Source of the DNA: a plasmid
Length of the DNA: 64,000 nt
Direction: 5' to 3' (one strand)
NCBI RefSeq assembly: GCF_058153355.1
Contig: NZ_JBLWLY010000002.1
This document shows, piece after piece, positions 1-48,948 of this stretch. How positions within the stretch are numbered: the stretch's first letter is position 1; each line of letters opens with the position of its first letter. Made by a program: the position numbers and the translations under genes. The notes beneath the pieces are model-generated. The model was not told the origin of the DNA, made no database searches, and was given only the letters and a program-made list of their open reading frames with translations.

Positions 1-2
1 AG

Positions 3-383: not shown

Positions 384-2070
384 TATTAAATCTTTGACTC
401 TCTTGATTGTATTGTTACCATTGATAGTTAATGCTAATAATATTGACTCTCATTTATTAGAACAAAATGACATAGCGAAATATGTTGCTCAAAGTGATAC
501 GGTAGGATCTTTTTTTGAACGTTTTTCTGCATTATTAAATTATCCTATTGTTGTTAGCAAACAAGCTGCAAAAAAGAAAATATCTGGGGAGTTTGATTTA
601 TCTAATCCAGAAGAAATGCTTGAAAAACTGACATTACTTGTGGGACTCATATGGTATAAAGATGGAAATGCATTATACATATATGACTCTGGAGAATTAA
701 TAAGCAAAGTTATTTTGCTGGAGAATATATCACTTAATTATCTTATTCAGTATCTGAAGGATGCTAACCTTTATGATCACAGATATCCTATAAGAGGAAA
801 CATTAGTGATAAAACATTCTATATATCTGGTCCTCCGGCATTGGTTGAACTGGTAGCTAATACAGCAACTTTGCTTGATAAGCAGGTTTCTTCTATTGGG
901 ACAGATAAAGTTAATTTTGGGGTTATAAAATTAAAAAATACATTTGTTAGTGACAGAACTTATAATATGAGAGGGGAGGATATTGTCATCCCAGGGGTGG
1001 CTACTGTTGTAGAACGTTTATTAAATAATGGTAAGGCTCTGAGTAACAGACAAGCCCAAAATGATCCGATGCCACCCTTTAATATTACACAGAAAGTATC
1101 TGAGGATAGTAATGACTTTTCATTTAGTTCAGTTACCAATAGTTCTATATTAGAGGATGTATCACTTATTGCATATCCAGAAACCAATTCTATATTAGTC
1201 AAAGGTAATGATCAGCAAATACAGATTATTCGCGATATTATCACTCAGTTAGATGTAGCCAAACGACATATAGAATTATCATTATGGATAATCGATATTG
1301 ATAAATCTGAATTAAATAACCTTGGTGTTAATTGGCAAGGAACGGCTTCATTTGGTGATTCGTTTGGTGCGTCATTTAATATGAGCTCATCAGCATCGAT
1401 AAGCACTTTGGACGGCAATAAGTTTATTGCTTCAGTTATGGCATTAAATCAGAAAAAGAAAGCAAATGTAGTTTCAAGGCCGGTGATTTTGACACAAGAG
1501 AATATTCCGGCTATATTTGATAATAACAGGACTTTTTATGTGTCATTAGTTGGTGAGCGCAATTCTTCGTTGGAGCATGTTACGTATGGAACATTGATAA
1601 ATGTTATACCTCGCTTTTCATCTCGGGGACAAATTGAGATGTCTTTAACGATAGAGGATGGAACAGGAAATAGTCAGTCAAATTACAATTATAATAATGA
1701 AAATACATCTGTCCTTCCAGAAGTTGGAAGGACCAAAATCAGTACAATAGCGAGAGTTCCACAAGGCAAAAGTTTGTTGATAGGTGGTTATACGCATGAA
1801 ACGAACTCTAACGAAATAGTATCTATTCCTTTTCTCTCCTCTATTCCTGTAATCGGTAATGTGTTCAAGTATAAAACAAGTAATATCAGTAATATTGTAA
1901 GGGTTTTTCTGATTCAACCCCGTGAGATAAAGGAGTCAAGTTATTATAATACTGCAGAATATAAGAGCCTCATATCTGAAAGAGAAATACAAAAGACTAC
2001 ACAAATAATCCCATCTGAAACTACTTTGCTGGAAGACGAAAAATCATTGGTTTCATACTTAAATTACTAA
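370..2070 (+). CDS. mxiD: T3SS outer-membrane secretin (SctC; InvG/MxiD family)
   Basis: 566 aa with signal peptide; conserved secretin segments (VSGPP, DVAKRH, VVSRPV.LTQEN.PAIFDNNRTFY, PEVGRT.ISTIARVP.GKSLL.GGYT). Confidence 0.9.
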   Translation: MKKFNIKSLTLLIVLLPLIVNANNIDSHLLEQNDIAKYVAQSDTVGSFFERFSALLNYPIVVSKQAAKKKISGEFDLSNPEEMLEKLTLLVGLIWYKDGNALYIYDSGELISKVILLENISLNYLIQYLKDANLYDHRYPIRGNISDKTFYISGPPALVELVANTATLLDKQVSSIGTDKVNFGVIKLKNTFVSDRTYNMRGEDIVIPGVATVVERLLNNGKALSNRQAQNDPMPPFNITQKVSEDSNDFSFSSVTNSSILEDVSLIAYPETNSILVKGNDQQIQIIRDIITQLDVAKRHIELSLWIIDIDKSELNNLGVNWQGTASFGDSFGASFNMSSSASISTLDGNKFIASVMALNQKKKANVVSRPVILTQENIPAIFDNNRTFYVSLVGERNSSLEHVTYGTLINVIPRFSSRGQIEMSLTIEDGTGNSQSNYNYNNENTSVLPEVGRTKISTIARVPQGKSLLIGGYTHETNSNEIVSIPFLSSIPVIGNVFKYKTSNISNIVRVFLIQPREIKESSYYNTAEYKSLISEREIQKTTQIIPSETTLLEDEKSLVSYLNY

Positions 2071-2088
2071 CTATAAAGTAGGTGATGT

Positions 2089-3156
2089 ATGCTTGATGTT
2101 AAAAATACAGGAGTTTTTAGCTCTGCATTCATTGATAAGTTGAATGCAATGACAAATTCAGATGATGGAGATGAGACTGCTGATGCAGAGCTTGATTCTG
2201 GCTTGGCTAATAGCAAGTATATTGACTCATCTGATGAGATGGCTTCCGCTCTTTCGTCATTCATAAACAGAAGAGACCTTGAGAAACTGAAAGGAACAAA
2301 TAGTGATAGTCAGGAGCGTATTTTAGATGGGGAAGAAGATGAAATTAATCACAAGATTTTTGATTTAAAGAGAACTTTAAAAGATAACCTTCCTCTAGAT
2401 CGGGATTTTATAGACAGACTAAAGAGATATTTTAAAGATCCAAGTGATCAAGTCTTAGCATTAAGGGAACTTTTGAATGAAAAAGATCTTACTGCTGAAC
2501 AAGTCGAATCATTAACTAAAATTATTAATGAGATAATATCAGGTAGTGAAAAAAGTGTTAATGCTGGAATAAATTCAGCTATACAGGCTAAATTATTTGG
2601 CAACAAAATGAAACTTGAACCACAGCTTTTGCGTGCATGTTATCGTGGTTTTATCATGGGGAACACATCAACAACAGATCAGTATATAGAATGGCTTGGT
2701 AATTTTGGTTTTAATCACAGGCATACAATTGTGAATTTTGTAGAGCAGTCACTGATTGTAGACATGGATTCTGAGAAACCGAGCTGTAATACTTATGAGT
2801 TTGGTTTTGTGTTATCTAAATTAATTGCAATTAAGATGATTAGAACTTCAGACGTAATTTTTATGAAGAAACTGGAATCCTCAAGCTTGCTAAAAGATGG
2901 CAGTTTAAGTGCAGAGCAGCTATTGCTAACTTTATTATATATTTTTCAATATCCAAGTGAAAGTGAGCAAATTCTTACTTCTGTTATAGAAGTATCACGA
3001 GCCAGTCATGAGGATTCTGTAGTGTATCAAACATATCTATCTTCTGTTAATGAAAGTCCTCATGATATATTTAAAAGTGAAAGTGAAAGAGAAATTGCGA
3101 TCAATATTCTACGAGAGCTTGTCACAAGTGCATACAAGAAAGAGCTTTCTAGATAA
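2089..3156 (+). CDS. mxiC: T3SS gatekeeper (SctW; InvE/MxiC family)
   Basis: 355 aa between secretin and SctV genes; size and position match MxiC. Confidence 0.85.
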   Translation: MLDVKNTGVFSSAFIDKLNAMTNSDDGDETADAELDSGLANSKYIDSSDEMASALSSFINRRDLEKLKGTNSDSQERILDGEEDEINHKIFDLKRTLKDNLPLDRDFIDRLKRYFKDPSDQVLALRELLNEKDLTAEQVESLTKIINEIISGSEKSVNAGINSAIQAKLFGNKMKLEPQLLRACYRGFIMGNTSTTDQYIEWLGNFGFNHRHTIVNFVEQSLIVDMDSEKPSCNTYEFGFVLSKLIAIKMIRTSDVIFMKKLESSSLLKDGSLSAEQLLLTLLYIFQYPSESEQILTSVIEVSRASHEDSVVYQTYLSSVNESPHDIFKSESEREIAINILRELVTSAYKKELSR

Positions 3157-3162
3157 CAGGAG

Positions 3163-5229
3163 ATGAAAGTGATCCAGTCTTTTCTTAAGCAAGTAAGTAC
3201 TAAGCCTGAATTAATTATATTAGTGCTTATGGTTATGATCATTGCTATGTTGATCATACCATTACCTACATACCTTGTTGATTTTTTAATAGGGCTTAAT
3301 ATTGTACTTGCTATTCTCGTTTTTATGGGATCATTTTATATTGAAAGAATATTGAGTTTTTCTACATTCCCTTCGGTTTTGTTGATAACGACATTATTTC
3401 GTCTCGCTTTATCAATAAGTACTAGTCGGCTAATTTTAGTTGATGCGGATGCGGGTAAAATTATTACTACATTTGGCCAGTTTGTCATTGGTGATAGTCT
3501 GGCTGTAGGTTTTGTTATTTTTTCAATAGTAACTGTTGTGCAGTTCATTGTTATAACAAAAGGATCTGAAAGGGTTGCGGAGGTAGCTGCTCGCTTTTCT
3601 CTTGACGGTATGCCGGGGAAACAAATGAGCATTGATGCGGATTTAAAGGCTGGAATTATTGATGCCGCAGGAGCTAAAGAAAGACGCAGTATTCTGGAAC
3701 GTGAGAGTCAATTGTATGGTTCATTTGATGGAGCAATGAAGTTCATTAAAGGTGATGCAATTGCTGGCATCATTATTATTTTTGTCAATTTAATAGGAGG
3801 TATTTCTGTTGGTATGAGTCAACATGGAATGTCCCTATCTGGTGCATTATCTACTTATACCATACTAACTATTGGTGACGGATTGGTCTCTCAGATTCCT
3901 GCTCTGTTAATTTCTATAAGTGCAGGATTTATCGTTACAAGAGTTAATGGTGATAGCGATAATATGGGACGTAACATAATGTCCCAGATATTTGGGAATC
4001 CTTTTGTTCTCATTGTTACATCAGCTCTTGCCTTGGCGATAGGGATGTTGCCAGGTTTTCCGTTTTTTGTTTTTTTCCTGATAGCAGTTACTTTGACGGC
4101 TTTATTCTATTATAAAAAGGTCGTAGAAAGAGAAAAAAGTCTGTCTGAGTCTGATTCTAGTGGCTATACTGGTACATTTGATATTGATAATAGCCATGAC
4201 TCATCTTTGGCAATGATAGAAAATCTGGATGCTATTAGTTCAGAAACCGTTCCTTTAATTTTATTATTTGCCGAAAATAAGATAAATGCAAATGATATGG
4301 AAGGGCTTATTGAAAGGATAAGAAGTCAGTTCTTTATTGATTATGGTGTCAGGCTTCCAACTATTTTATATAGAACAAGCAATGAGCTTAAGGTTGACGA
4401 TATTGTTTTGTTAATAAATGAGGTGCGTGCCGATAGTTTTAATATATACTTTGACAAAGTATGTATTACAGATGAAAATGGAGATATAGATGCTCTAGGT
4501 ATTCCTGTTGTTCCAACTTCATATAATGAACGTGTTATTTCTTGGGTAGACGTTTCATATACAGAAAATCTAACTAATATTGATGCTAAAGTTAAAAGCG
4601 CTCAAGATGAATTTTATTACCAGTTGTCACAAGCTTTATTAAACAACATAAATGAGATTTTTGGCATACAAGAAACAAAAAATATGTTAGATCAGTTTGA
4701 AAATCGGTATCCTGATCTTTTAAAGGAAGTCTTCCGACATGTGACTATACAGAGAATATCTGAGGTATTACAAAGATTGCTTGGAGAAAATATTTCTGTT
4801 CGCAATTTAAAACTTATTATGGAGTCTTTGGCGCTTTGGGCTCCCAGAGAAAAAGATGTCATAACATTAGTTGAACATGTCCGTGCATCACTTTCTAGGT
4901 ATATTTGTAGTAAAATAGCCGTTTCTGGTGAGATTAAAGTTGTGATGCTTTCCGGATATATTGAGGATGCAATAAGAAAAGGGATAAGGCAAACCTCTGG
5001 TGGCTCTTTCTTGAATATGGACATAGAGGTTTCGGATGAGGTAATGGAAACTTTAGCACATGCTTTGAGAGAATTGAGAAATGCAAAAAAAGATTTCGTT
5101 CTTTTGGTATCAGTAGATATACGTAGGTTTGTTAAAAGACTTATAGATAACAGATTTAAGAGTATACTCGTTATATCGTATGCTGAGATTGATGAAGCAT
5201 ATACCATTAATGTATTGAAGACTATTTAG
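3163..5229 (+). CDS. mxiA: T3SS export apparatus major subunit (SctV; InvA/MxiA)
   Basis: 688 aa; N-terminal polytopic membrane domain; FSLDGMPGKQMSIDADLKAG motif typical of the FlhA/SctV family. Confidence 0.92.
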   Translation: MKVIQSFLKQVSTKPELIILVLMVMIIAMLIIPLPTYLVDFLIGLNIVLAILVFMGSFYIERILSFSTFPSVLLITTLFRLALSISTSRLILVDADAGKIITTFGQFVIGDSLAVGFVIFSIVTVVQFIVITKGSERVAEVAARFSLDGMPGKQMSIDADLKAGIIDAAGAKERRSILERESQLYGSFDGAMKFIKGDAIAGIIIIFVNLIGGISVGMSQHGMSLSGALSTYTILTIGDGLVSQIPALLISISAGFIVTRVNGDSDNMGRNIMSQIFGNPFVLIVTSALALAIGMLPGFPFFVFFLIAVTLTALFYYKKVVEREKSLSESDSSGYTGTFDIDNSHDSSLAMIENLDAISSETVPLILLFAENKINANDMEGLIERIRSQFFIDYGVRLPTILYRTSNELKVDDIVLLINEVRADSFNIYFDKVCITDENGDIDALGIPVVPTSYNERVISWVDVSYTENLTNIDAKVKSAQDEFYYQLSQALLNNINEIFGIQETKNMLDQFENRYPDLLKEVFRHVTIQRISEVLQRLLGENISVRNLKLIMESLALWAPREKDVITLVEHVRASLSRYICSKIAVSGEIKVVMLSGYIEDAIRKGIRQTSGGSFLNMDIEVSDEVMETLAHALRELRNAKKDFVLLVSVDIRRFVKRLIDNRFKSILVISYAEIDEAYTINVLKTI

Positions 5230-5241
5230 TGAGGTTTAAAT

Positions 5242-5643
5242 ATGAGTAACATTAATTTAGTTCAATTAGTTAGAGATAGTCTTTTCACGATTGGTTGTCC
5301 TCCATCAATTATTACAGATTTAGACAGCCATTCAGCGATTACCATTTCGTTGGATAGTATGCCTGCTATTAACATAGCTCTTGTCAATGAGCAGGTTATG
5401 TTATGGGCTAATTTTGATGCACCAAGTGATGTAAAACTTCAGTCATCTGCTTATAACATATTAAATTTAATGTTAATGAACTTTAATTATAGCATTAATG
5501 AGCTGGTAGAACTTCATCGTTCTGATGAGTATTTACAGTTAAGAGTTGTTATTAAAGATGACTACGTTCACGATGGGATTGTTTTTGCAGAGATTCTGCA
5601 TGAGTTTTATCAGAGGATGGAAATCTTAAATGAGGTCTTATAA
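5242..5643 (+). CDS. spa15: T3SS class I chaperone (Spa15/InvB family)
   Basis: 133 aa acidic protein between sctV and sctN, the arrangement specific to mxi-spa. Confidence 0.8.
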
Positions 5644-5646
5644 TCA

Positions 5647-6939
5647 ATGAGCTATACAAAATTGCTCACTCAATTATCTTTTCCTAATAAAATCTCGGGG
5701 CCAATCTTGGAAACAAGTCTTAGCGATGTTTCGATTGGTGAGATTTGTAACATTCAGGCTGGAATTGAAAGTAATGAAATTGTTGCAAGAGCTCAGGTTG
5801 TAGGATTTCATGATGAAAAAACGATATTAAGCTTGATTGGAAATTCTCGTGGGCTTTCACGGCAAACGTTGATTAAGCCCACTGCCCAGTTTCTTCATAC
5901 GCAAGTCGGCCGAGGATTATTGGGAGCAGTAGTCAATCCTTTAGGGGAGGTTACTGATAAGTTTGCTGTTACGGATAACAGTGAAATCCTTTATCGACCT
6001 GTAGATAATGCTCCTCCGCTATATAGTGAAAGGGCTGCAATTGAGAAGCCTTTTTTAACAGGTGTTAAGGTTATTGATTCTTTACTCACGTGTGGTGAAG
6101 GACAGCGAATGGGGATTTTTGCGTCAGCTGGTTGTGGCAAAACTTTTCTCATGAATATGCTCATTGAACATAGTGGTGCTGATATATATGTTATTGGGTT
6201 AATTGGTGAGCGAGGTCGAGAGGTTACAGAAACGGTTGATTATTTGAAAAACTCTGAGAAAAAAAGCAGGTGTGTTTTAGTATATGCAACTTCGGATTAC
6301 TCTTCGGTTGATCGTTGTAATGCTGCATATATAGCCACTGCTATAGCCGAATTTTTTAGGACTGAAGGACATAAAGTAGCGCTTTTTATTGATTCATTAA
6401 CAAGGTATGCCAGAGCATTACGTGATGTGGCCTTAGCCGCTGGAGAATCACCTGCTAGAAGAGGCTATCCGGTTTCGGTTTTTGATAGCTTACCCAGACT
6501 TCTTGAAAGGCCAGGAAAGTTAAAGGCAGGTGGCTCTATTACTGCATTTTATACTGTTCTTTTGGAGGATGATGATTTTGCTGATCCATTGGCTGAAGAG
6601 GTAAGATCCATTTTAGATGGACATATATATTTGAGCAGAAATCTAGCCCAAAAAGGACAATTTCCTGCAATTGATTCCTTAAAAAGTATAAGCAGAGTAT
6701 TTACACAGGTTGTTGATGAAAAACATCGTATTATGGCCGCTGCATTTCGGGAGCTACTTTCTGAAATAGAAGAGCTAAGGACAATTATTGACTTTGGTGA
6801 ATACAAACCGGGGGAGAATGCCTCTCAGGATAAAATCTACAACAAAATATCTGTTGTTGAGAGTTTTCTGAAGCAAGATTATCGACTCGGTTTTACTTAT
6901 GAGCAGACAATGGAGCTTATTGGTGAAACAATTAGATAA
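5647..6939 (+). CDS. spa47: T3SS ATPase (SctN; Spa47/InvC)
   Basis: 430 aa; Walker A GCGKT; F1/FliI-like ATPase core. Confidence 0.92.
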   Translation: MSYTKLLTQLSFPNKISGPILETSLSDVSIGEICNIQAGIESNEIVARAQVVGFHDEKTILSLIGNSRGLSRQTLIKPTAQFLHTQVGRGLLGAVVNPLGEVTDKFAVTDNSEILYRPVDNAPPLYSERAAIEKPFLTGVKVIDSLLTCGEGQRMGIFASAGCGKTFLMNMLIEHSGADIYVIGLIGERGREVTETVDYLKNSEKKSRCVLVYATSDYSSVDRCNAAYIATAIAEFFRTEGHKVALFIDSLTRYARALRDVALAAGESPARRGYPVSVFDSLPRLLERPGKLKAGGSITAFYTVLLEDDDFADPLAEEVRSILDGHIYLSRNLAQKGQFPAIDSLKSISRVFTQVVDEKHRIMAAAFRELLSEIEELRTIIDFGEYKPGENASQDKIYNKISVVESFLKQDYRLGFTYEQTMELIGETIR

Positions 6940-7019
6940 GGTTTTAAAAATCAAAGATAAATATCAACGGTCTGTTAAACTAATTGAAGCACACATATTA
7001 ACACTAAAAAAAAAACTCT

Positions 7020-7370
7020 TTGTATCGAGATGTGGAGGCATTAGATAAAAGGATTATATACTTCCTGCAGCTGGAGAATGACTTGGAACCTGTAGGCGCT
7101 CAGAGTGTTAGTCAGCTTTTCAATACAAGACGTAAGATCGCTATAGTAAAAAAGCATATTATCCAATATCAGTCTGAACGAATTCTTCTAAATGGAAGAA
7201 TTGAAGAAATTCAAAAAGATATTGATGAGGCAAATGCTTCTAAAAGAAAACTGCTTCATAAAGAGAGTAAAATATGTAAACGGATTGGCTTGATTAAAAG
7301 AAATAACTTTGCCAAACAGTTGATACTTGATGAGTTATCACAAGAGGATATGAAGTATGGCATTAGATAA
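7020..7370 (+). CDS. spa13: T3SS stalk protein (SctO; Spa13/InvI)
   Basis: About 116 aa, coiled-coil-like, immediately downstream of the ATPase gene; start codon uncertain. Confidence 0.7.
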
Positions 7371-8235
7371 TATAAACTTAAATTTTAGTAGTGACAAACA
7401 GATAGAAAAATGTGAGAAACTATCTTCAATAGATAATATTGATAGTCTCGTTTTGAAGAAGAAGAGGAAGGTTGAAATTCCTGAGTACTCTTTAATTGCA
7501 TCTAACTATTTTACTATTGATAAGCACTTTGAACATAAGCATGATAAAGGAGAAATTTATAGTGGCATTAAAAATGCGTTCGAACTTAGAAACGAACGAG
7601 CGACATATTCTGATATTCCAGAATCAATGGTCATTAAAGAAAATATTTTGATACCAGAGCAAGATATCAAAGCAAGGGAAAAAATAAATATCGGCGATAT
7701 GAGGGGGATCTTTTCATATAATGAGAGTGGAAATGCAGACAAGAACTTCGAAAGAAGTCATACTTCTTCTGCAAACCCTGATAATCTGCTAGAACCTGAT
7801 AATAGAAATGGTCAAATTGGTTTAAAAAATCATAGCTTATCTATTGATAAGAATATTGCTGACATCATTTCTTTGCTAAATGGAAGTGTTCCTAAGTCAT
7901 TTGATCTGCCTGTAATGAAAAAAAATACTTCAGACATAACCCCATCCATGTCATTGCAAGAAAAATCAATAGTTGAAAATGATAAAAATGTTTATCAAAA
8001 AAATAGTGAAATGACTTACCACTTTAAACAGTGGGGGGCTGGACATTCTGTTAGTATTTCAGTGGAGTCTGGTTCTTTTGTTCTAAAACCGTCAGATCAA
8101 TTTGTAGGAAATAAACTTGACTTAATTTTGAAACAAGATGCTGAGGGTAATTACAGATTTGATAGCAGTCAACATAATAAGGGGAATAAAAATAATAGTA
8201 CAGGATATAATGAACAGAGTGAAGAAGAATGCTAA
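7357..8235 (+). CDS. spa32: T3SS needle-length regulator (SctP; Spa32/InvJ)
   Basis: 292 aa, poorly conserved, in the SctP position; overlaps neighbouring genes as in the spa operon. Confidence 0.7.
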
Positions 8236-9110
8236 GACTTAAACATTTTGACGCTAACGAAAAATTACAGATTTTATATGCCAAGCAACTCTGCGAGCGT
8301 TTTGCGATTCAGACATTCAAAAATAAATTTACAGGCAGTGAAAGTTTAGTCACTCTTACTTCCGTGTGTGGTGATTGGGTGATTCGTATTGATACATTAT
8401 CTTTTTTGAAAAAAAAATACGAGGTATTTTCAGGATTTTCTACACAAGAATCTTTACTGCATTTATCAAAATGTGTCTTTATAGAGTCGTCATCTGTATT
8501 TTCGATTCCAGAACTGTCGGATAAGATTACTTTCCGGATCACGAATGAAATCCAGTTTGCAACTACTGGGAGTCATTTATGCTGTTTTTCCTCTTCTTTA
8601 GGTATTATTTATCTTGACAAGATGCCTGTATTACGTAATCAAGTTTCTCTTGATTTATTGCATCATCTTTTAGAGTTTTGCTTAGGTTCATCTAATGTGA
8701 GGCTGGCTACTTTAAAAAGAATTCGCACTGGTGATATAATCATAGTTCAGAAACTTTATAATTTATTATTGTGTAATCAAGTTATTATTGGGGATTATAT
8801 TGTGAATGATAATAATGAGGCAAAAATTAATCTGTCAGAAAGTAATGGTGAGTCAGATCACACAGAAGTTTCTTTGGCATTATTCAATTATGATGATATC
8901 AATGTAAAAGTGGACTTTATCCTTTTAGAAAAAAAGATGACAATCAATGAACTAAAAATGTATGTAGAAAACGAATTATTCAAGTTTCCCGATGACATAG
9001 TTAAACATGTAAATATTAAAGTAAATGGTTCTTTGGTTGGGCATGGGGAACTTGTTTCTATTGAGGATGGTTATGGTATCGAGATTAGTTCTTGGATGGT
9101 AAAGGAGTAA
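8229..9110 (+). CDS. spa33: T3SS cytoplasmic sorting platform protein (SctQ; Spa33/SpaO)
   Basis: 293 aa; SpoA-like C-terminal region; position between SctP and SctR. Confidence 0.8.
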
Positions 9111-9114
9111 TCTC

Positions 9115-9765
9115 ATGCTGAGTGATATGTCCCTCATCGCTACACTTTCTTTTTTTACGCTATTACCATTTTTAGTTGCTGCTGGTACTTGTTATATAAA
9201 GTTTTCTATTGTTTTTGTAATGGTACGAAATGCACTTGGTTTGCAGCAGGTTCCATCAAATATGACTCTCAATGGTATTGCATTGATTATGGCTTTGTTC
9301 GTGATGAAACCCATTATTGAAGCTGGTTATGAAAATTATCTAAATGGCCCGCAAAAATTTGATACAATATCAGATATTGTCCGTTTTTCTGATTCTGGCT
9401 TGATTGAATACAAGCAATACTTGAAAAAGCATACAGATCTTGAGTTGGCACGTTTTTTCCAAAGGTCTGAAGAAGAAAATGCTGATTTAAAGAGTGCAGA
9501 GAATAATGATTATTCATTGTTTTCCCTCTTGCCTGCATATGCGCTAAGTGAAATTAAAGATGCGTTCAAAATAGGTTTTTATTTATATTTGCCATTTATT
9601 GTTGTTGATCTTGTTATTTCAAGCATTTTACTTGCACTTGGTATGATGATGATGAGTCCAATCACAATATCAGTACCAATAAAACTTGTATTATTTGTTG
9701 CGCTTGATGGGTGGGGGATCCTGTCTAAGGCCTTGATTGAACAATATATCAATGTTCCTGCTTAG
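9115..9765 (+). CDS. spa24: T3SS export apparatus protein (SctR; Spa24/SpaP)
   Basis: 216 aa polytopic membrane protein; FliP family size and position. Confidence 0.9.
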
Positions 9766-9779
9766 ATGATGGAGGTAAT

Positions 9780-10040
9780 GTGTCTGATATAGTTTATATG
9801 GGTAATAAGGCTCTTTATTTAATCCTTATCTTTTCCTTATGGCCAGTAGGTATAGCTACGGTTATTGGATTAACTATTGGTTTATTACAGACAGTGACTC
9901 AACTCCAAGAGCAGACACTTCCTTTTGGTATAAAGCTTATAGGTGTCTCAATATCTTTGCTACTTCTTTCTGGATGGTATGGTGAGGTTTTATTGTCTTT
10001 TTGTCATGAAATAATGTTTTTAATTAAGAGTGGGGTTTGA
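9780..10040 (+). CDS. spa9: T3SS export apparatus protein (SctS; Spa9/SpaQ)
   Basis: 86 aa, two hydrophobic helices; FliQ family. Confidence 0.88.
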
Positions 10041-10810
10041 TGGACATTTCAAGCTGGTTCGAAAGTATTCATGTGTTTTTAATACTCCTGAACGGCGTTT
10101 TTTTTAGATTGGCTCCATTATTTTTCTTTCTTCCATTTTTAAATAACGGTATAATTTCTCCATCTATTAGAATACCTGTGATTTTTCTTGTTGCATCAGG
10201 ATTAATTACTTCTGGTAAGGTAGATATAGGTTCTTCTGTTTTTGAACATGTTTATTTCCTTATGTTCAAGGAAATAATTGTTGGCCTCCTTCTCTCTTTT
10301 TGCTTGTCTCTTCCCTTTTGGATATTTCATGCTGTTGGTAGCATTATTGACAACCAGCGTGGGGCAACGCTTAGTAGTTCAATTGATCCTGCCAATGGTG
10401 TTGATACGTCTGAGTTGGCAAAATTTTTCAATCTTTTTTCTGCAGTTGTATTTCTATACAGTGGTGGTATGGTCTTTATTTTAGAATCCATACAATTGTC
10501 TTATAATATATGCCCGTTATTTTCTCAATGTTCTTTCCGTGTCTCAAATATCTTAACATTTCTGACTTTATTGGCAAGTCAGGCTGTTATTTTAGCCAGT
10601 CCTGTTATGATAGTATTGTTACTATCAGAAGTATTACTTGGTGTATTATCGAGATTTGCTCCGCAGATGAATGCTTTTTCCGTATCATTAACTATTAAAA
10701 GTTTACTTGCAATATTTATTATTTTCATCTGCTCTTCTACTATTTACTTTTCTAAAGTTCAATTTTTCCTCGGTGAACATAAATTTTTCACAAATCTATT
10801 TGTTAGATAA
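10037..10810 (+). CDS. spa29: T3SS export apparatus protein (SctT; Spa29/SpaR)
   Basis: 257 aa polytopic membrane protein; FliR family; start overlaps spa9 stop. Confidence 0.88.
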
Positions 10811-10816
10811 AATATT

Positions 10817-11845
10817 ATGGCAAATAAAACAGAAAAGCCGACACCTAAAAAACTAAAGGATGCCGCAAAAAAAGGACAGTCATTTAAATTTAAGGATTTA
10901 ACGACTGTTGTTATTATTCTGGTAGGGACATTTACTATAATATCATTCTTTTCCTTAAGTGATGTAATGCTCTTATACAGATATGTAATAATTAATGACT
11001 TCGAAATTAATGAGGGTAAATACTTTTTTGCAGTGGTTATTGTCTTTTTTAAGATAATTGGCTTCCCACTTTTTTTCTGTGTTCTTTCGGCTGTGTTGCC
11101 AACATTGGTTCAAACAAAGTTTGTTCTTGCGACTAAAGCTATCAAGATTGATTTTTCAGTATTAAACCCTGTTAAAGGGTTAAAAAAAATATTTAGTATA
11201 AAGACAATAAAAGAATTTTTCAAAAGCATTCTGCTTCTTATTATTCTAGCATTAACAACCTATTTCTTTTGGATTAATGACCGAAAAATAATTTTTTCTC
11301 AGGTGTTTTCTAGTGTTGATGGCTTATATCTTATTTGGGGGGGGCTGTTTAAGGATATAATATTATTTTTCTTGGCATTTTCTATTTTTGTTATTATTCT
11401 TGACTTTGTGATTGAGTTCATTTTATACATGAAAGATATGATGATGGATAAACAGGAGATAAAAAGAGAATATATAGAGCAAGAGGGACACTTTGAGACA
11501 AAGTCGAGAAGGCGTGAGTTGCATATCGAGATTCTTTCAGAGCAGACTAAATCTGATATACGTAATTCAAAATTAGTGGTAATGAACCCGACTCATATTG
11601 CAATTGGTATTTATTTTAATCCAGAAATAGCGCCTGCACCTTTTATTTCTCTCATTGAAACTAACCAGTGTGCCTTGGCTGTCAGAAAATATGCAAATGA
11701 AGTTGGTATACCAACTGTGCGTGATGTGAAATTAGCTAGAAAACTATATAAAACACATACAAAATATAGTTTTGTTGATTTTGAACACTTGGATGAAGTC
11801 CTACGTCTTATTGTTTGGCTTGAGCAGGTTGAAAACACTCATTAA
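10817..11845 (+). CDS. spa40: T3SS autoprotease/substrate-specificity switch (SctU; Spa40/SpaS)
   Basis: 342 aa; N-terminal membrane domain; NPTH autocleavage motif (..VVMNPTHIAIG..). Confidence 0.9.
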   Translation: MANKTEKPTPKKLKDAAKKGQSFKFKDLTTVVIILVGTFTIISFFSLSDVMLLYRYVIINDFEINEGKYFFAVVIVFFKIIGFPLFFCVLSAVLPTLVQTKFVLATKAIKIDFSVLNPVKGLKKIFSIKTIKEFFKSILLLIILALTTYFFWINDRKIIFSQVFSSVDGLYLIWGGLFKDIILFFLAFSIFVIILDFVIEFILYMKDMMMDKQEIKREYIEQEGHFETKSRRRELHIEILSEQTKSDIRNSKLVVMNPTHIAIGIYFNPEIAPAPFISLIETNQCALAVRKYANEVGIPTVRDVKLARKLYKTHTKYSFVDFEHLDEVLRLIVWLEQVENTH

Positions 11846-11866
11846 TAAGTAAAGGAGATGTGTTAT

Positions 11867-12100
11867 ATGGGAGTTAATTTCTGTAATAAAATAGGTATTG
11901 ATCAGTCTGAATTTGAAATAGAATCTTCCATCATTAACTCCATTGCTAATGAGGTATTGAACCCAATATCTTTCCTTAGCAACAAGGATATAATAAATGT
12001 TTTACTCAGAAAGATTTCATCTGAATGTGACCTGGTTAGAAAAGACATTTATCGTTGTGCTCTGGAGTTGGTCGTTGAAAAAACACCTGATGATTTATAA
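11867..12100 (+). CDS. Small hypothetical protein downstream of spa40
   Basis: ORF with AAGGAG Shine-Dalgarno about 8 nt upstream of the second ATG; AT-rich like the T3SS locus; no recognisable motif. Confidence 0.4.
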   Translation: MGVNFCNKIGIDQSEFEIESSIINSIANEVLNPISFLSNKDIINVLLRKISSECDLVRKDIYRCALELVVEKTPDDL

Positions 12101-13248: not shown

Positions 13249-15218
<1,970 letters not shown>

Positions 15219-15278: not shown

Positions 15279-15560
15279 CTGCTGACGAGGGCTTATCCCT
15301 GTCCGCCGCTGACACCACGTATACCAGCCGCTGTGGGCCACCCGGAGCACGCGGCACATTGCCTTGATGCTGAACCCAGCCTGATGTTTTTCAATAAAGA
15401 CATACTTCATTTCAGGCGCTTCGTAAAGTATGTCGCGGCCTTTTGGAGGATAGCCAGTTCCTCTGCCTGCTCCGCCAGTTGCCGCTTCAGGCGGGCATTT
15501 TCAGCGGCCAGTTCACTTTCACGCTCAGACGAGGTCATCTGTTGCTGCAGTTTGCTGCGC
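15279..15560 (-). pseudogene. IS3 fragment (orfA 3' end plus orfB 5' start), bounded by the IS21 and IS66 insertions
   Basis: Minus-strand translation ..[50 protein letters not shown] followed by [25 protein letters not shown].. Confidence 0.7.
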
Positions 15561-15679
15561 GTAAGCGTCTTATCAGGACCGTCTGGCAAATTCCCGATGC
15601 TTTGGACAAAGTATCCACCACTAAATTAATAGTGGGTGATAAAAATGTCAGATATACAAAAAAATGCCTCTCCGGGAAG

Positions 15680-17105
15680 TAATGCCAGTCAGTTAAGCAA
15701 CTGACTGGCTCTTTTTCGGGGCTGTGGGGTATTTCCAGGGCCTCTCCTTTACCACTCTCGGGAAGGCCCTTTCCCTTCTTGTCGGTAATTTCACAAGTTG
15801 TCCCATACTTGCAAGATCGCGCATCAGCTCCGGTATACGTCCCGGTGAAGCGCCCTGCAATGTCATCAGCATTCTCATCACCATTCCGCATGATTCTGAG
15901 AAACTCAGTTGATTCGGCCAGTAACCTTTCAGATGTTCCGCCATTTTAATCATCTGATATCTCACCAGATTATAAGCCAGTAAGACACCCCACAGCTCTT
16001 GCTCCACAAGCTCCGGCTTTTTACTTCTCAGCGTCAGCCTGCTCAGTTGCATCGTCTGTTTTATCTCCCTGTATCCCAGTTCGATTTCCCAGCGATGACT
16101 GTACAGATCCGCCATTTCTCCTCCGGGGAAGCGCATGGCGTCCGTCATCGACGTCAGCAGATGGCAGACTTTTCCTTTGCGCGTCACGGTCAGCAGGCGG
16201 GCTGTCACTTCATTTCCCAGTCCCGGCCACTTTTTTCGTGCCTGCGGGCTGGTTTTCAGCTTCACCAGATGATCGCCTTTACCCAGTTTTCTGATCTCTT
16301 CATATTGCGCTCCCTTTCTGAGAGGTATCATCCAGTGGCGGTGTTCTCCCGCCAGGCTCCAGGCATTTAACAGTCCCAGTGAGTAATAACCTTTATCCAT
16401 TAACGTCAGAGTGTTATCGCCGGTTTGTTCTATAAGTTGCTCAGCAAGCTCATTTTCGCTGTTCTTCATCGTGCCGAAGGCTGCAGCCGTCAGCAGATGG
16501 CTGGTCAGTTCCATCTGGCAGACCATTTTGACCTGCGGGTAGAGCGCCGGGTTCCCGGCATGTGTCTGGCGGGGGAAGGCTGCATCGTTCTCTGGTGTAT
16601 CCGGTGTGCGCCAGAACACACCATCGATGGCCAGCAGGGTCAGGCCGCACCAGTGCGGATGCGGCGTGGCGTTATGCCAGAGCTGCGCTGTTTTCGTGAA
16701 CACGCGGCGGACAGCCTCACTTCCCAGGCGCTGGCGGGCCTGAATAACGGCACTGGGGGCAACGAAGGGGCGATTGCCCGGCAGCATGATGTCCAGGCGA
16801 TTCACAATCTGGTGAAGAGGTTCTTTACGCTCAAGCGCCATGCCAACAATACACCAGACCATCATTTCGAGGGGAAGACGGCGCTTGCGTAGCGTTACAG
16901 TACCTGATTCGGCAAGGCAACGAGAGATGAGTTCGGGGTCGAGGTAATCCCCCAGAGAAGTCAGTGGGTTACGCAGAGAATCGTAACGGGATACCAGATC
17001 AAGAGCCTGTCCAATGTGCATAAAAAAATCCGGAAACAAGTGAGCGTTTCCGGATTCTTACACAGCCACTGGATCGGTCAACTGATCCTTAACTGATCGG
17101 CATTA
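15680..17105 (-). mobile_element. IS4, 1426 bp, flanked by a 12-bp direct duplication CTCTCCGGGAAG (15668..15679 and 17106..17117)
   Basis: Terminal inverted repeats TAATGCC(A/G)..CAGTTAAG at both ends; perfect 12-bp TSD; length equals canonical IS4. Confidence 0.9.
15693..17039 (-). CDS. IS4 transposase
   Basis: 448-aa ORF (from the first ATG) matching the IS4 transposase as I recall it. Confidence 0.9.
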
Positions 17106-17498
17106 CTCTCCGGGAAGGCCTAAAGGGTGCCTGAATTATCCTCCTGAATTCAAACAACGACTCATAGAAGCATCATTCCAGCCAGGTGTTTCAATTTCCA
17201 GACTGGCCCTGGACAATGGTATTAATGCCAATCTGTTGTTCAAATGGCGTCAGAAATGGCGGCAGGGGAAGATAAAATTGCCATCATCAGAATCAGGCAG
17301 AGAATCTCAGTTAATTCCTGTCACTATTGATGCCCAACTCCCAACTGCTCCGGCTAATGAGCCACTGACCGCAAGACCGTCAGTAACACCGGAAATACAC
17401 AGCATCTCCTGTGAGATTACGTTCAGAAACGGCACCCTTCGGTTGAACGGGGCAGTGAATGAAAATCTGCTGTCCTTGCTTATACAGGAGCTGAGACG

Positions 17499-17846
17499 GT
17501 GATATCTCTCCCTGCAGGTTCGCGTATCTGGCTGGTTGCAGGTATCACCGATATGCGAAATGGCTTTAACGGCCTGGCCTCAAAAGTTCAGAACGTCCTG
17601 AAGGATGACCCGTTCTCCGGACACCTGTTCATCTTCCGCGGACGCCGGGGTGACCAGATAAAAGTGCTGTGGGCTGACAGCGACGGACTGTGCCTCTTCA
17701 CCAGACGCCTGGAACGGGGCCGCTTCGTCTGGCCGGTCACCCGTGACGGCAAGGTGCACCTTACTCCGGCCCAGTTATCCATGCTTCTTGAGGGCATCGA
17801 CTGGAAACACCCGAAACGAACGGAACGCGCTGGCATCCGCATATAA
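17499..17846 (+). CDS. tnpB: IS66-family TnpB (orf2)
   Basis: 115 aa; near-identical to the TnpB of the intact copy at 22228..22575. Confidence 0.85.
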   Translation: MISLPAGSRIWLVAGITDMRNGFNGLASKVQNVLKDDPFSGHLFIFRGRRGDQIKVLWADSDGLCLFTRRLERGRFVWPVTRDGKVHLTPAQLSMLLEGIDWKHPKRTERAGIRI

Positions 17847-17865
17847 CCCGTTGTAAAGTGAGGAT

Positions 17866-19254
17866 ATGGACACCTCACTTGCTCATGAGAATGCCCGCCT
17901 GCGGGCACTGTTGCAGACGCAACAGGACACCATCCGCCAGATGGCGAAATACAACCGCCTGCTCTCACAGCGGGTGGCGGCTTATGCTTCCGAAATCAAC
18001 CGGCTGAAGGCGCTGGTTGCAAAACTGCAGCGCATGCAGTTCGGTAAAAGCTCAGAAAAACTTCGTGCAAAAACCGAACGGCAGATACAGGAAGCACAGG
18101 AGCGAATCAGCGCTCTTCAGGAAGAAATGGCGGAAACGCTGGGTGAGCAATATGACCCGGTACTGCCATCTCCCCTGCGCCAGTCTTCAGCCCGTAAACC
18201 GTTACCTGCCTCACTTCCCCGTGAAACCCGGGTCATCCGTCCGGAAGAGGAATGCTGCCCGGCCTGTGGTGGCGAACTCAGTTCTCTGGGATGTGATGTG
18301 TCAGAGCAACTGGAGCTTATCAGCAGCGCCTTTAAGGTTATCGAAACACAACGTCCGAAACTGGCCTGTTGCCGGTGCGACCATATCGTGCAGGCTCCGG
18401 TGCCTTCAAAACCCATTGCACGCAGTTATGCCGGAGCGGGGCTTCTGGCCCATGTTGTCGCTGGAAAATATGCAGACCATCTGCCGTTATACCGCCAGTC
18501 AGAAATATACCGTCGTCAGGGCGTGGAGCTGAGCCGTGCCACACTGGGGCGCTGGACAGGTGCTGTTGCTGAACTGCTGGAACCGCTGTATGACATCCTG
18601 CGCCAGTATGTGCTGATGCCCGGTAAAGTCCATGCCGATGATATCCCCGTTCCGGTCCAGGAGCCGGGCAGCGGTAAAACAAGGACTGCCCGGCTGTGGG
18701 TCTACGTTCGTGATGACCGTAACGCCGGTTCGGAAATGCCTCCGGCGGTCTGGTTCGCGTACAGCCCGGACCGGAAAGGTATCCATCCACAGAATCATCT
18801 GGCCGGTTACAGCGGAGTGCTTCAGGCCGATGCTTACGGTGGTTACCGGGCGTTGTACGAATCCGGCAGAATAACGGAAGCCGCATGTATGGCTCATGCC
18901 CGGAGAAAAATCCACGATGTGCATGCAAGAGTGCCCACCGACATCACCACGGAAGCCCTGCAGCGTATCGGTGAACTGTATGCCATCGAGGCAGAGGTCC
19001 GGGGCTGTTCAGCAGAACAGCGTCTGGCGGCAAGAAAAGCCAGAGCCGCGCCACTGATGCAGTCACTGTATGACTGGATACAGCAACAGATGAAAACACT
19101 GTCGCGTCACTCGGACACGGCAAAAGCGTTCGCATACCTGCTGAAACAGTGGGATGCACTGAACGTGTACTGCAGTAATGGCTGGGTGGAAATCGACAAC
19201 AACATCGCAGAGAACGCCTTACGGGGAGTGGCCGTAGGCCGGAAAAACTGGCTC
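17866..19254 (+). pseudogene. tnpC: IS66-family transposase TnpC, 5' exon, interrupted after ..GRKNWL by the group II intron
   Basis: Identical to residues 1 to about 463 of the intact 523-aa TnpC at 20637..22208; continuation found at 23557..23738. Confidence 0.8.
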
Positions 19255-19766
19255 TGTGTGTCACGAAGGAGTACTTATGGCAACAATGTGAAAATTGCAG
19301 CATAAGTTATCCATGCTCTGAGGTGGGTGGAGGTGGGCCCTCCGGTCAGGGTTTACAGGAGCACTGACCAAACGACCCGGTGCTGCTTCATTCTAAGGAA
19401 TGAGGTGGTGAGCGACTCGGGAAAAGGCAGAGATCTACTGTCACGTGGGGTTCGGGAAGCTGAACGAAAGTAAACTGTCCGATGAAGCATCGAAATCTTA
19501 GATGATGTCAAAATGGGGCCGTACAGCCGTCCCCTGATAAGCGCAGAAGACACCTGCTTACTGACTGCGCGGCATCCGGTGTGAAGGCAGCAGGATCCCG
19601 GGCCAGACCATCTCAGGGAACGTGAGAACCTGTTTCCGGCACGTATCGGGAAACAGGGGCGGACCCATTCGTAGTAGTGATGAAAGATCTGTAATGGGTC
19701 TGGAGCGAAGGGATGGGGATCACATTCATTGCAGAAGACACAACCCAAAAGGGGATGACGTAACTG

Positions 19767-20606
19767 ATGCAACGAAAATCATTTGAAATACCAAAAGCAC
19801 TGGTCTGGGCATCATATCTGGATGTGCGTCGCAACAAGGGAGCCCCCGGATGCGACGGGCAGACTTTGAAAATGTTCGACCAGCAACGTGATGGCAATCT
19901 ATACAAGATCTGGAACCGGCTATGTTCGGGAACATGGTTTCCGCCACCAGTGCTGGAAAAACGGATCCCGAAGTCGAATGGCAAGGAACGCATTCTGGGG
20001 ATCCCAACAGTATCCGATCGAATTGCTCAGGGAGCGATAAAACTTTTCATGGAAGAAAAGCTTGACCCGATTTTCCATGCTGATTCATATGGTTACCGAC
20101 CAGGCAAATCAGCTCATGACGCTCTGAAACAATGTGCCATCCGGTGCTGGCGTTATAGCTGGATACTGGAAGTGGACATCAGTGCGTTTTTCGACCATGT
20201 GAGACATGATCTGGTGCTCAAAGCTCTGGAACACCACGGGATGCCTAAATGGGTCATCCTGTACTGTCGACGCTGGATGGAAGCGCCAATGCAGAGTTGT
20301 GAAAATGGAGAATTAATAACCCGAACACGAGGCACTCCGCAGGGCGGGGTCATTAGTCCACTACTTGCTAACTTGTTCCTTCACTATGCATTTGATTTGT
20401 GGATGGAAAGAGAATATCGGGGGGTACCGTTTGAGAGGTACGCTGACGATATTGTAGTACATTGTTCACGAATGAGTGATGCAACAAGGCTGAAGAACAG
20501 GTTATCGGAGCGCTTCTCGGAAGTCGGGCTGGTCCTGAATGCAGGGAAAACGAATATCGCCTACATTGACACGTTTAAAAGGAGAAACGTCGCAACGAGT
20601 TTCACC
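19767..20606 (+). pseudogene. Group II intron reverse transcriptase/maturase, interrupted by IS66 copy 2; C-terminal part resumes at 23083..23476
   Basis: RT motifs (..PQGGVISPLLANLFL.., ..YADD..) identical to the intact 410-aa copies at 36768..38000 and 60598..61830 up to ..VATSFT. Confidence 0.8.
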
Positions 20607-20636
20607 GTAAGCGGCTCGCCAGAACCGTATTGATAT

Positions 20637-22208
20637 TTACTGAGAGCTCAGATCAACTTTCCAGGGCAACAGATCGCGTACCCGGTTTGCCGGCCAGTCC
20701 TGGATATGTTCAATGACGTAACGCAGCCACTTTTCTGGCTCCACATTGTTCAGACGGCATGTGCCGATCAGCGAGTACAACACCGCAGCATGTTCACCAC
20801 CGCTGTCAGAACCCGCGAAGAGCCAGTTTTTCCGGCCTACGGCCACTCCCCGTAAGGCGTTCTCTGCGATGTTGTTGTCGATTTCCACCCAGCCATTACT
20901 GCAGTACACGTTCAGTGCATCCCACTGTTTCAGCAGGTATGCGAACGCTTTTGCCGTGTCCGAGTGACGCGACAGTGTTTTCATCTGTTGCTGTATCCAG
21001 TCATACAGTGACTGCATCAGTGGCGCGGCTCTGGCTTTTCTTGCCGCCAGACGCTGTTCTGCTGAACAGCCCCGGACCTCTGCCTCGATGGCATACAGTT
21101 CACCGATACGCTGCAGGGCTTCCGTGGTGATGTCGGTGGGCACTCTTGCATGCACATCGTGGATTTTTCTCCGGGCATGAGCCATACATGCGGCTTCCGT
21201 TATTCTGCCGGATTCGTACAACGCCCGGTAACCACCGTAAGCATCGGCCTGAAGCACTCCGCTGTAACCGGCCAGATGATTCTGTGGATGGATACCTTTC
21301 CGGTCCGGGCTGTACGCGAACCAGACCGCCGGAGGCATTTCCGAACCGGCGTTACGGTCATCACGAACGTAGACCCACAGCCGGGCAGTCCTTGTTTTAC
21401 CGCTGCCCGGCTCCTGGACCGGAACGGGGATATCATCGGCATGGACTTTACCGGGCATCAGCACATACTGGCGCAGGATGTCATACAGCGGTTCCAGCAG
21501 TTCAGCAACAGCACCTGTCCAGCGCCCCAGTGTGGCACGGCTCAGCTCCACGCCCTGACGACGGTATATTTCTGACTGGCGGTATAACGGCAGATGGTCT
21601 GCATATTTTCCAGCGACAACATGGGCCAGAAGCCCCGCTCCGGCATAACTGCGTGCAATGGGTTTTGAAGGCACCGGAGCCTGCACGATATGGTCGCACC
21701 GGCAACAGGCCAGTTTCGGACGTTGTGTTTCGATAACCTTAAAGGCGCTGCTGATAAGCTCCAGTTGCTCTGACACATCACATCCCAGAGAACTGAGTTC
21801 GCCACCACAGGCCGGGCAGCATTCCTCTTCCGGACGGATGACCCGGGTTTCACGGGGAAGTGAGGCAGGTAACGGTTTACGGGCTGAAGACTGGCGCAGG
21901 GGAGATGGCAGTACCGGGTCATATTGCTCACCCAGCGTTTCCGCCATTTCTTCCTGAAGAGCGCTGATTCGCTCCTGTGCTTCCTGTATCTGCCGTTCGG
22001 TTTTTGCACGAAGTTTTTCTGAGCTTTTACCGAACTGCATGCGCTGCAGTTTTGCAACCAGCGCCTTCAGCCGGTTGATTTCGGAAGCATAAGCCGCCAC
22101 CCGCTGTGAGAGCAGGCGGTTGTATTTCGCCATCTGGCGGATGGTGTCCTGTTGCGTCTGCAACAGTGCCCGCAGGCGGGCATTCTCATGAGCAAGTGAG
22201 GTGTCCAT
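20637..22208 (-). CDS. tnpC: IS66-family transposase TnpC (intact, 523 aa)
   Basis: Full-length ORF; zinc-finger-like CxxC pairs and DDE-type C-terminal region typical of IS66 TnpC. Confidence 0.9.
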
Positions 22209-22227
22209 ATCCTCACTTTACAACGGG

Positions 22228-22575
22228 TTATATGCGGATGCCAGCGCGTTCCGTTCGTTTCGGGTGTTTCCAGTCGATGCCCTCAAGAAGCATGGATAAC
22301 TGGGCCGGAGTAAGGTGCACCTTGCCGTCACGGGTGACCGGCCAGACGAAGCGGCCCCGTTCCAGGCGTCTGGTGAAGAGGCACAGTCCGTCGCTGTCAG
22401 CCCACAGCACTTTTATCTGGTCACCCCGGCGTCCGCGGAAGATGAACAGGTGTCCGGAGAACGGGTCATCCTTCAGGACGTTCTGAACTTTTGAGGCCAG
22501 GCCGTTAAAGCCATTTCGCATATCGGTGATACCTGCAACCAGCCAGATACGCGAACCTGCAGGGAGAGATATCAC
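22228..22575 (-). CDS. tnpB: IS66-family TnpB
   Basis: 115 aa; conserved IS66 orf2 arrangement. Confidence 0.88.
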   Translation of the reverse strand: MISLPAGSRIWLVAGITDMRNGFNGLASKVQNVLKDDPFSGHLFIFRGRRGDQIKVLWADSDGLCLFTRRLERGRFVWPVTRDGKVHLTPAQLSMLLEGIDWKHPKRTERAGIRI

Positions 22576-23000
22576 CGTCTCAGCTCCTGTATAAGCAAGG
22601 ACAGCAGATTTTCATTCACTGCCCCGTTCAACCGAAGGGTGCCGTTTCTGAACGTAATCTCACAGGAGATGCTGTGTATTTCCGGTGTTACTGACGGTCT
22701 TGCGGTCAGTGGCTCATTAGCCGGAGCAGTTGGGAGTTGGGCATCAATAGTGACAGGAATTAACTGAGATTCTCTGCCTGATTCTGATGATGGCAATTTT
22801 ATCTTCCCCTGCCGCCATTTCTGACGCCATTTGAACAACAGATTGGCATTAATACCATTGTCCAGGGCCAGTCTGGAAATTGAAACACCTGGCTGGAATG
22901 ATGCTTCTATGAGTCGTTGTTTGAATTCAGGAGGATAATTCAGGCACCCTTTAGGCCTTCCCGGAGAGGCATTTTTTTGTATATCTGACATTTTTATCAC
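22572..23000 (-). CDS. tnpA: IS66-family TnpA (orf1)
   Basis: 142 aa; HTH-containing N-terminus; overlaps tnpB start. Confidence 0.85.
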   Translation of the reverse strand: MIKMSDIQKNASPGRPKGCLNYPPEFKQRLIEASFQPGVSISRLALDNGINANLLFKWRQKWRQGKIKLPSSESGRESQLIPVTIDAQLPTAPANEPLTARPSVTPEIHSISCEITFRNGTLRLNGAVNENLLSLLIQELRR

Positions 23001-23768
23001 CCACTATTAATTTAGTGGTGGATACTTTGTCCAAAGCATCGGGAATTTGCCAGACGGTCCTGATAAGACGCTTACGTTTCACCTTTCTCGGATATGACTT
23101 CAAAGTGCGTACGCTGAAGAATTTCAAAGGCGAACTGTACCGAAAATGCATGCCGGGTGCGTCAAATGCAGCAATGCGCAAAATAACAGAAACAATCAAG
23201 AAGTGGCGTATACATCGCTCAACAGCTGAGAGTTTGCTGGATTTTGCGAGGCGCTACAATGCGATAGTGAGAGGCTGGATCGAGTACTACGGAAAGTTCT
23301 GGTCCAGAAATTTCAACTATCGACTGTGGAGTGCAATGCAGTCACGTCTGCTCAAGTGGATGCAGTCTAAATACAGACTTTCGAACCGGAAGGCTCAGCG
23401 AAAGCTGACGCTGGTAAGGAAGGAGTATCCGAAGCTATTTGTTCACTGGTATTTACTACGTGCATCAAATGAGTGATCAAGAGCCGTATGACGCGAGAGT
23501 GTCACGTACGGTTCCGTGAGCAGCCGGGGAGTGAAATTCTCTCCGGCTGACTCGACTCGCAGGTTCCGACAGCGGTGGCGAACATGCGGCGGTGTTGTAC
23601 TCGCTGATCGGCACATGCCGTCTGAACAATGTGGGGCCAGAAAAATGGCTGCGTTACGTCATTGAGCATATCCAGGACTGGCCGGCAAACCGGGTACGCG
23701 ATCTGTTGCCCTGGAAAGTTGATCTGAGCTCTCAGTAAATATCAATACGGTTCTGGCGAGCCGCTTAC

Positions 23769-24109
23769 GCACTAACTGTAGTCTGAGTAGATAAAGACGG
23801 AGTAAGAGCAGCCACCGGTTCTTTCGGCTCATCCGGCGTTATCTCCACAGGTAATAATTCAACGCCAGTGTCAGAAGAGGTTGTTACCGGAAGACGCCGC
23901 GATATGCGCCCTTCGTTCTGCCAGAGCCTGAGCCATTTGAACAGCAGATTGGCGTTAATGCCATTTTCAAGAGCAAGTTTTGAGATGGATACCCCGGATT
24001 CACAGGAGGCAGAAACGAGCTGCTGTTTAAATTCGGGAGGATCATTAGGGCAGCCTTTTCGCCTGCCGGGAGTCACATTTTTCTGCATATCTGACACTTT
24101 GGTTCCCAC
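23769..24109 (-). pseudogene. IS66-family TnpA (type B) fragment, truncated by the right end of IS66 copy 1
   Basis: Translation ..[69 protein letters not shown].. parallels the tnpA at 57452..57871. Confidence 0.6.
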
Positions 24110-24298
24110 TACTTATTTGGTGGACACCACTTTGTCTAATTCGTCAGATTCTGACCAGACGGTTCAGGCTGTACGCTTCCCCATGTGATTTGCCTCGCCA
24201 CTTCACCGGGCTCAGGACCCCGTAGGATCTTCACCGAAAAAAATGCATCACCAGTTGCTTTATTATTTGTTTTAGGTAGACCTGTTACTAATTTATAC

Positions 24299-46978: not shown

Positions 46979-48948
<1,970 letters not shown>

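Follow-up and report, generated by a model that had tools for sequence, protein, structure and literature searches.

A complete IS4 element was found inside tnpA of an IS66-family element on plasmid DNA of the pINV type, within the stretch of 64,000 nucleotides that was analyzed here (the window). We conclude with high confidence that IS4 entered the 5' end of this tnpA by direct transposition. The target in the 5' end of the gene is of the kind that IS4 prefers, consisting of an A-run and a GC-rich pseudo-palindrome. It was cut at positions staggered 12 bp apart, and repair produced the perfect duplication of CTCTCCGGGAAG. The sequence before insertion is preserved in an identical, paralogous copy of the host element (copy 2).

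The initial annotation had described a 1426-bp IS4, a perfect 12-bp duplication on its two sides, an interrupted tnpA reading frame, and hence an insertion of one IS into another. All of this held up on closer analysis: the IS4 is complete, it lies within an IS66-family tnpA, and its duplication is intact. The parts are all of known kinds, namely IS4, an IS66-family element, a group II intron, a nest of IS within IS on pINV, and a target preference. The event is an ordinary, textbook one on an IS-saturated Shigella/EIEC invasion plasmid, and raises no new question. Its use is modest and lies in providing a clean pair of empty and filled IS4 sites that illustrates sequence-directed target choice. 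It also aids annotation, in that the region is to be read as a set of nested elements and not as separate 'pseudogenes'.

The IS4 element

The insert at 15680..17105 is exactly 1426 bp long and was identified as a complete IS4, of the IS4 subgroup of the IS4 family, by its match to E. coli IS4 records and to the IS4 of MG1655. By its transposase gene, it lies on the minus strand. Among the matches listed, E. coli elements annotated as 'IS4-like element IS4 family transposase' covered 100% of the insert with 99.9% identity. A full-length IS4 was the best match, at 99% identity or more, in 1826 complete E. coli records.

Alignment with a reference IS4 had been proposed as a check in the initial annotation. 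Compared with the MG1655 element (NC_000913.3 4502090-4503515, 1426 bp), the insert contained three substitutions and no indels (99.8% DNA identity). The terminal inverted repeats were TAATGCCAGTCAGTTAAG at the end beside the transposase stop codon (15680..15697, plus strand) and, in minus-strand reading, TAATGCCGATCAGTTAAG beside the transposase start (17088..17105). They matched at 16 of 18 positions, started with TAATGCC, and were identical to the ends of the K-12 element.

The sole ORF of the element was intact and encoded an InsG-type transposase of 442 aa from its ATG (15693..17021, minus strand). The open frame reached a TTG at 17039, from which the product would be 448 aa. The Pfam domains Nterm_IS4 (3e-33) and DDE_Tnp_1 (9e-32) were both present. 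The amino acid sequence was identical to that of WP_000483766.1, a protein widespread in E. coli, as encoded by the IS4 copies of strain SCU-387 (L002) and plasmid pDC71-3 (L003), and differed from K-12 InsG at two residues. There was no sign of defect, and this copy of IS4 is apparently functional.

The K-12 IS4 shares with the one in the window its length of 1426 bp, the terminal sequences, a single DDE transposase of 442 aa and a duplication of 12 bp. Unlike the K-12 element, the one studied here sits within another IS on a pINV-type plasmid.

The IS66-family host element and its intron

The host element (copy 1) lies on the plus strand in separated pieces. Its left inverted repeat (GTAAGCGTC...) and tnpA codons 1 to 15 occupy 15561..15679 and are 100% identical to positions 1-119 of copy 2. 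Beyond IS4, 17118..19255 contains the remainder of tnpA (to 17502), tnpB (17499-17846) and tnpC from 17866 to the point of the intron, again 100% identical to copy 2. The 3' end at 23557..23768 comprises the last part of tnpC with the right inverted repeat, and is 96.7% identical to copy 2. On its left, copy 1 adjoins a remnant of IS3H.

Copy 2 is an intact element of 2469 bp (20607..23075, minus strand), with tnpA at 22572-23000, tnpB at 22228-22575 and tnpC at 20637-22208. It sits in the intron ORF and is flanked by an 8-bp duplication, GTTTCACC, at 20599-20606 and 23076-23083. The order is tnpA-tnpB-tnpC, with overlapping ORFs. TnpA (142 aa) contained HTH_Tnp_1, TnpB contained TnpB_IS66, and TnpC (523 aa) contained DDE_Tnp_IS66, zf-IS66, LZ_Tnp_IS66 and the C-terminal element of Pfam. 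The Pfam families for the products of copy 1 were taken from the identical products of copy 2. The inverted repeats of both copies started with GTAAGCG.

The host element was compared with known elements. Its tnpB and tnpC were about 97% identical to elements that PGAP labels ISCro1. Also like the ISCro1 and IS679-type elements of Shigella and EIEC pINV, the host element has three ORFs, GTAAGCG... repeats and, in copy 2, an 8-bp duplication. On the other hand, its TnpA is 142 aa long, compared with 225 aa in ISCro1. Of the 5,426 complete genomes of E. coli, only 14 had this variant of tnpA, at no more than 95.5% identity, and its best plasmid match (97.6%) was in E. albertii plasmids. The host element is an IS66-family mosaic, in which tnpB and tnpC of the ISCro1 type are joined to a rare 142-aa tnpA.

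A left end and tnpA of a third, more divergent IS66-family element (114 aa, with HTH_Tnp_1) were seen at 23765-24180 on the minus strand. It breaks off at its junction with the right end of copy 1.

At 19255/19256, the tnpC of copy 1 is split by a group II intron (19256..23556, plus strand, sense orientation), which is 1824 bp long without the nested IS66. It was recognized by Rfam, by Pfam and by its boundaries, 5' GTGTG...GAC 3', which fit the 5' GUGYG and 3' AY expected. Rfam matched group-II-D1D4-2 (RF01999, 91.9 bits) at 19329-19445 and Intron_gpII (RF00029, 57.1 bits), covering domains V/VI, at 23479-23556. The intron ORF is itself interrupted by copy 2, and its two halves carry RVT_1 and GIIM.

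When copy 2 and one GTTTCACC were removed, this intron was 100% identical to those at 36688-38511 (minus strand) and 60087-61910 (plus strand). The latter two lie in other IS66 remnants and have intact RT/maturase ORFs of 410 aa. Each of the three introns interrupts an IS66-family tnpC in the sense orientation, at IS66 coordinate 2257/2258.

The intron E.c.I3 homes into IS679, a member of the IS66 family, and fragments of it occur on the Shigella virulence plasmid (Leclercq & Cordaux 2012, PMC3522654). The fixed position in an IS66-family tnpC, with three copies on pINV-type DNA, is E.c.I3-like, and the intron is probably of the E.c.I3 type, a name given here from the homing target alone. A similar arrangement was found in EIEC pCFSAN029787_01 (L001), where ISCro1 (with the 225-aa tnpA) lies between fragments of a group II intron maturase and an RT pseudogene; the likeness is one of arrangement.

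Copy 1 has no 8-bp duplication in its flanks, which read TGCTGCGC (15553-15560) and GCACTAAC (23769-23776). The missing duplication suggests a later recombination. Over its 5' 3.7 kb, IS4 excluded, copy 1 is 100% identical to copy 2, and over the final 212 bp the identity is 96.7%. This indicates a mosaic, formed by recombination between copies of IS66 or of the intron.

A recombinant copy 1 bears on the route by which IS4 arrived. IS4 might have entered an ancestral or sister copy of IS66 and reached the present locus through homologous recombination or gene conversion. Both the lack of the 8-bp duplication and the change from 100% to 96.7% identity with copy 2 would fit such a route, and the window offers partners for recombination in its IS66-related segments, of which there are at least four. 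However, the other IS66 copies in the window carry no IS4. The IS66/IS4 junction was also absent from 5,426 complete E. coli genomes, from 72,556 PLSDB plasmids (about 130 of them from Shigella) and from a JGI metagenome scan. We regard this route as very unlikely. Either way, the original event would be unchanged, being a transposition of IS4 into this tnpA sequence with a 12-bp duplication.

The target-site duplication and the empty site

The reading that we prefer, direct transposition into tnpA, rests mainly on the sequences next to IS4. Exact copies of CTCTCCGGGAAG were found at 15668..15679 and 17106..17117 (both plus strand), immediately outside the two ends of the element. A search of the 64-kb window, allowing up to one mismatch, gave a third and last occurrence at 22957..22968 on the minus strand. 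This is the paralogous empty target, a single 12-mer within the intact tnpA of copy 2 (22572-23000), which bears out the second check proposed in the initial annotation.

At the empty site, C stands before the 12-mer and G after it, whereas the IS4 ends are ...A and T.... The duplication is thus exactly 12 bp and its boundaries are unambiguous, because the flanking bases of the empty site differ from the end bases of IS4.

Removal of IS4 and one repeat restored the match to copy 2. The reconstructed sequence, 15560-15679 joined to 17118-19255, was aligned with 23076-20819 of the minus strand and gave 100% identity without gaps over 2258 bp. Because copy 2 matches the reconstruction completely and contains the 12-mer once, CTCTCCGGGAAG is a true target-site duplication.

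The IS4 target duplication is 11-13 bp long, about one helical turn, in the older IS4 literature. Among the other IS4 copies examined, the duplications were 12 bp in K-12 and at L020, and 13 bp at L002, L003 and L026. Since these copies show 12-13 bp, the 12 bp observed here is in the normal range. The figure given at the family level is about 10 bp (PMC2266710).

No record in PLSDB or among the complete E. coli genomes covered an orthologous empty site, that is, the IS3H/IS66 junction without IS4. The empty site described above comes from the paralogous copy only.

The identity between the two copies also bears on whether the assembly is correct. A genuine IS4 might have been assigned to copy 1 instead of copy 2, which is identical around the site, or joined to its flank as a chimera. 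The flanks are 100% identical to copy 2, the left one over 119 bp and the right one over 2138 bp, and short reads would be unable to distinguish copies 1 and 2. However, both junctions are clean, the duplication is perfect and has the canonical length, and the site scores highly as an IS4 target (see below); a chimeric join would create no duplication. An artefact of assembly is highly improbable, and a misplacement would leave the biology the same, with IS4 in this tnpA sequence.

That the 12-bp repeat arose by chance or existed beforehand can be dismissed with near certainty: the 12-mer is single in the intact tnpA, 0.12 matches were expected by chance and three were reached in none of 100 shuffles, the repeats abut the IS4 ends exactly with a length within the 12-13 bp of other IS4 copies, and the restored sequence matches gaplessly over 2258 bp.

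Target preference of IS4

The site taken by IS4 was not random and resembles its other targets. Megablast matches of other IS4 copies extended about 20 nt beyond the element, into the window flank. Two terminator-like insertion sites in E. coli have almost the flank of the window. One lies in the lpxM-pyk intergenic region of strain SCU-387 (L002), with the flank AAAAAATGC followed by the duplication CTCTCGCGAGGAG. Another lies downstream of finO on the F-type plasmid pDC71-3 (L003), with the flank AAAAAAAGC and the duplication CTCCCTCAGGGAG. At the window site, the flank is AAAAAAATGC and the duplication CTCTCCGGGAAG.

At all three sites, the same IS4 end abuts an A-run and then GC/CTC...GAG, the slash marking the border between flank and duplication. 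The sites of L002 and L003 have 13-bp duplications and strong hairpins (-7.3 and -7.9 kcal/mol), whereas the window site has 12 bp, lies in coding sequence and forms a weak palindrome.

An unbiased sample of IS4 flanks was obtained with a 30-mer confined to the element itself, run against one genome of each species. This gave 67 loci from many Enterobacterales. In almost all of the flanks, positions -23 to -16 formed an A-run, -12 to -9 were rich in C, and both -4 and -1 were G. This pattern is one arm of a terminator-like hairpin.

A weight matrix was built from 58 non-redundant left flanks of IS4 in other Enterobacterales. The window site scored 14.27 bits, and its paralogue in copy 2 scored the same. 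With both strands of the window counted, 125,054 positions were scored and only 3 reached this value, namely the window site, the paralogue and 58443, which placed the occupied site second to third. In a leave-one-out comparison, the window site outscored 81% of genuine IS4 sites. The homologous stretch of the third IS66-like tnpA in the window scored 7.8 bits. Unlike the present tnpA, that of ISCro1 has no comparable IS4 target at its start; the best score was 5.8 bits.

Judged by the matrix, the site is a near-best match to the preference of IS4, with an A-run, a GC-rich pseudo-palindrome about 3 nt later, and G as the last base of the latter before the IS4 end. Because its score is near the top of the window, the insertion point is explained by the target preference of IS4.

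The one position in the window that scored above the occupied site was at 58409-58443 (plus strand, 15.10 bits). It is unrelated and unoccupied.

A hairpin was also considered as the basis of the choice. The window target DNA folded at -2.3 kcal/mol (z = 0.22), compared with -7.3 to -14.9 kcal/mol at three other IS4 sites. The target folded no better than shuffled sequences, and this explanation was rejected. Because the window target makes a poor hairpin, the argument for target choice rests on sequence consensus, not on structure. Strong specificity of the target arms has been described for the IS4 subgroup (De Palmenaer et al. 2008, PMC2266710).

IS4 or near-identical elements were seen in Kosakonia, Budvicia, Silvania, Buttiauxella, Rosenbergiella and Yersinia, among other genera (L004-L070). 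These copies were almost always beside an A-run and a GC-rich hairpin resembling an intrinsic terminator, and many of the contigs ended at IS4.

It is a speculative and rather unlikely idea that the start of tnpA mimics the terminator-like target of IS4 and acts as a recurrent hot spot, and that the 8.2-kb unit 15561-23768 might move as a composite. If so, IS4 would repeatedly knock out this lineage of IS66, and the unit, which keeps both IS66 ends, would use the proteins of the inner copy.

Effect of the insertion on copy 1

IS4 splits tnpA at codon 15/16, with the break inside an Arg codon (AG/G). The product of intact tnpA reads MIKMSDIQKNASPGRPKGCLNYPPEFKQ across the target. The left stub is 19-22 aa long; tnpA has a GTG at 15636 and an ATG at 15645. 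The break lies upstream of the HTH_Tnp_1 domain (TnpA residues 22-72), and IS4 lies in antisense orientation relative to tnpA. The residual tnpA ORF of 88 aa had no match in an exact look-up.

A terminator-like hairpin with an 11-bp stem and a T tail was detected by a consensus scan and as an inverted repeat at 15684..15719 on the plus strand (hairpin, 15684-15709). It lies just within the IS4 end and faces transcription from the left end of IS66. Because this hairpin and its T-run should stop transcripts from the left end, polarity on tnpB and tnpC is predicted. The insertion is probably polar, with tnpB and tnpC of copy 1 silenced in cis.

All three ORFs are reportedly required for transposition of IS679; a text search of the literature found no equivalent statement on the requirement for tnpA. 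For copy 1 to move, the intact copy 2 would have to provide the proteins in trans.

The initial annotation had also attributed the inactivation of this IS66 copy to IS4. The break in tnpA was confirmed, but IS4 is not the whole cause, since tnpC is independently broken by the group II intron. With the intron in tnpC, and with copy 1 also lacking its own 8-bp duplication, IS4 is only one of several lesions.

Distribution and surrounding elements

The start of the window (1-12000) contains mxi-spa type III secretion genes, which are at most 99.4% identical to those of any pINV in PLSDB, with S. dysenteriae the closest. A large autotransporter gene lies at 24743-28051. It is an icsA-like candidate by position, since icsA flanks a matching cluster of IS and intron in EIEC pINV. 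By its sequence, we assign the window to pINV-type DNA, that of a Shigella/EIEC invasion plasmid.

Because the IS66/IS4 junction was absent from the collections searched, it could be used as a lineage marker, and the insertion appears to be specific to the lineage of the window. Two candidates for the same junction, in E. marmotae pEM76 and in the pINV of S. dysenteriae NCDC 599-52, were rejected. In both, IS4 and ISCro1 are neighbors, and IS4 lies outside tnpA.

Other IS elements were seen in the window. There are two istA/istB pairs of the IS21 type, at 13249-15218 (plus strand) and 46979-48948 (minus strand), with ORFs of equal sizes (390 and 266 aa). Two transposase genes of the IS110 family also occur, at 40702-41721 (plus strand) and 56376-57266 (minus strand), one of which is truncated at its N terminus. 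These IS21 and IS110 copies add to the very high density of IS between mxi-spa and the remainder of the plasmid.
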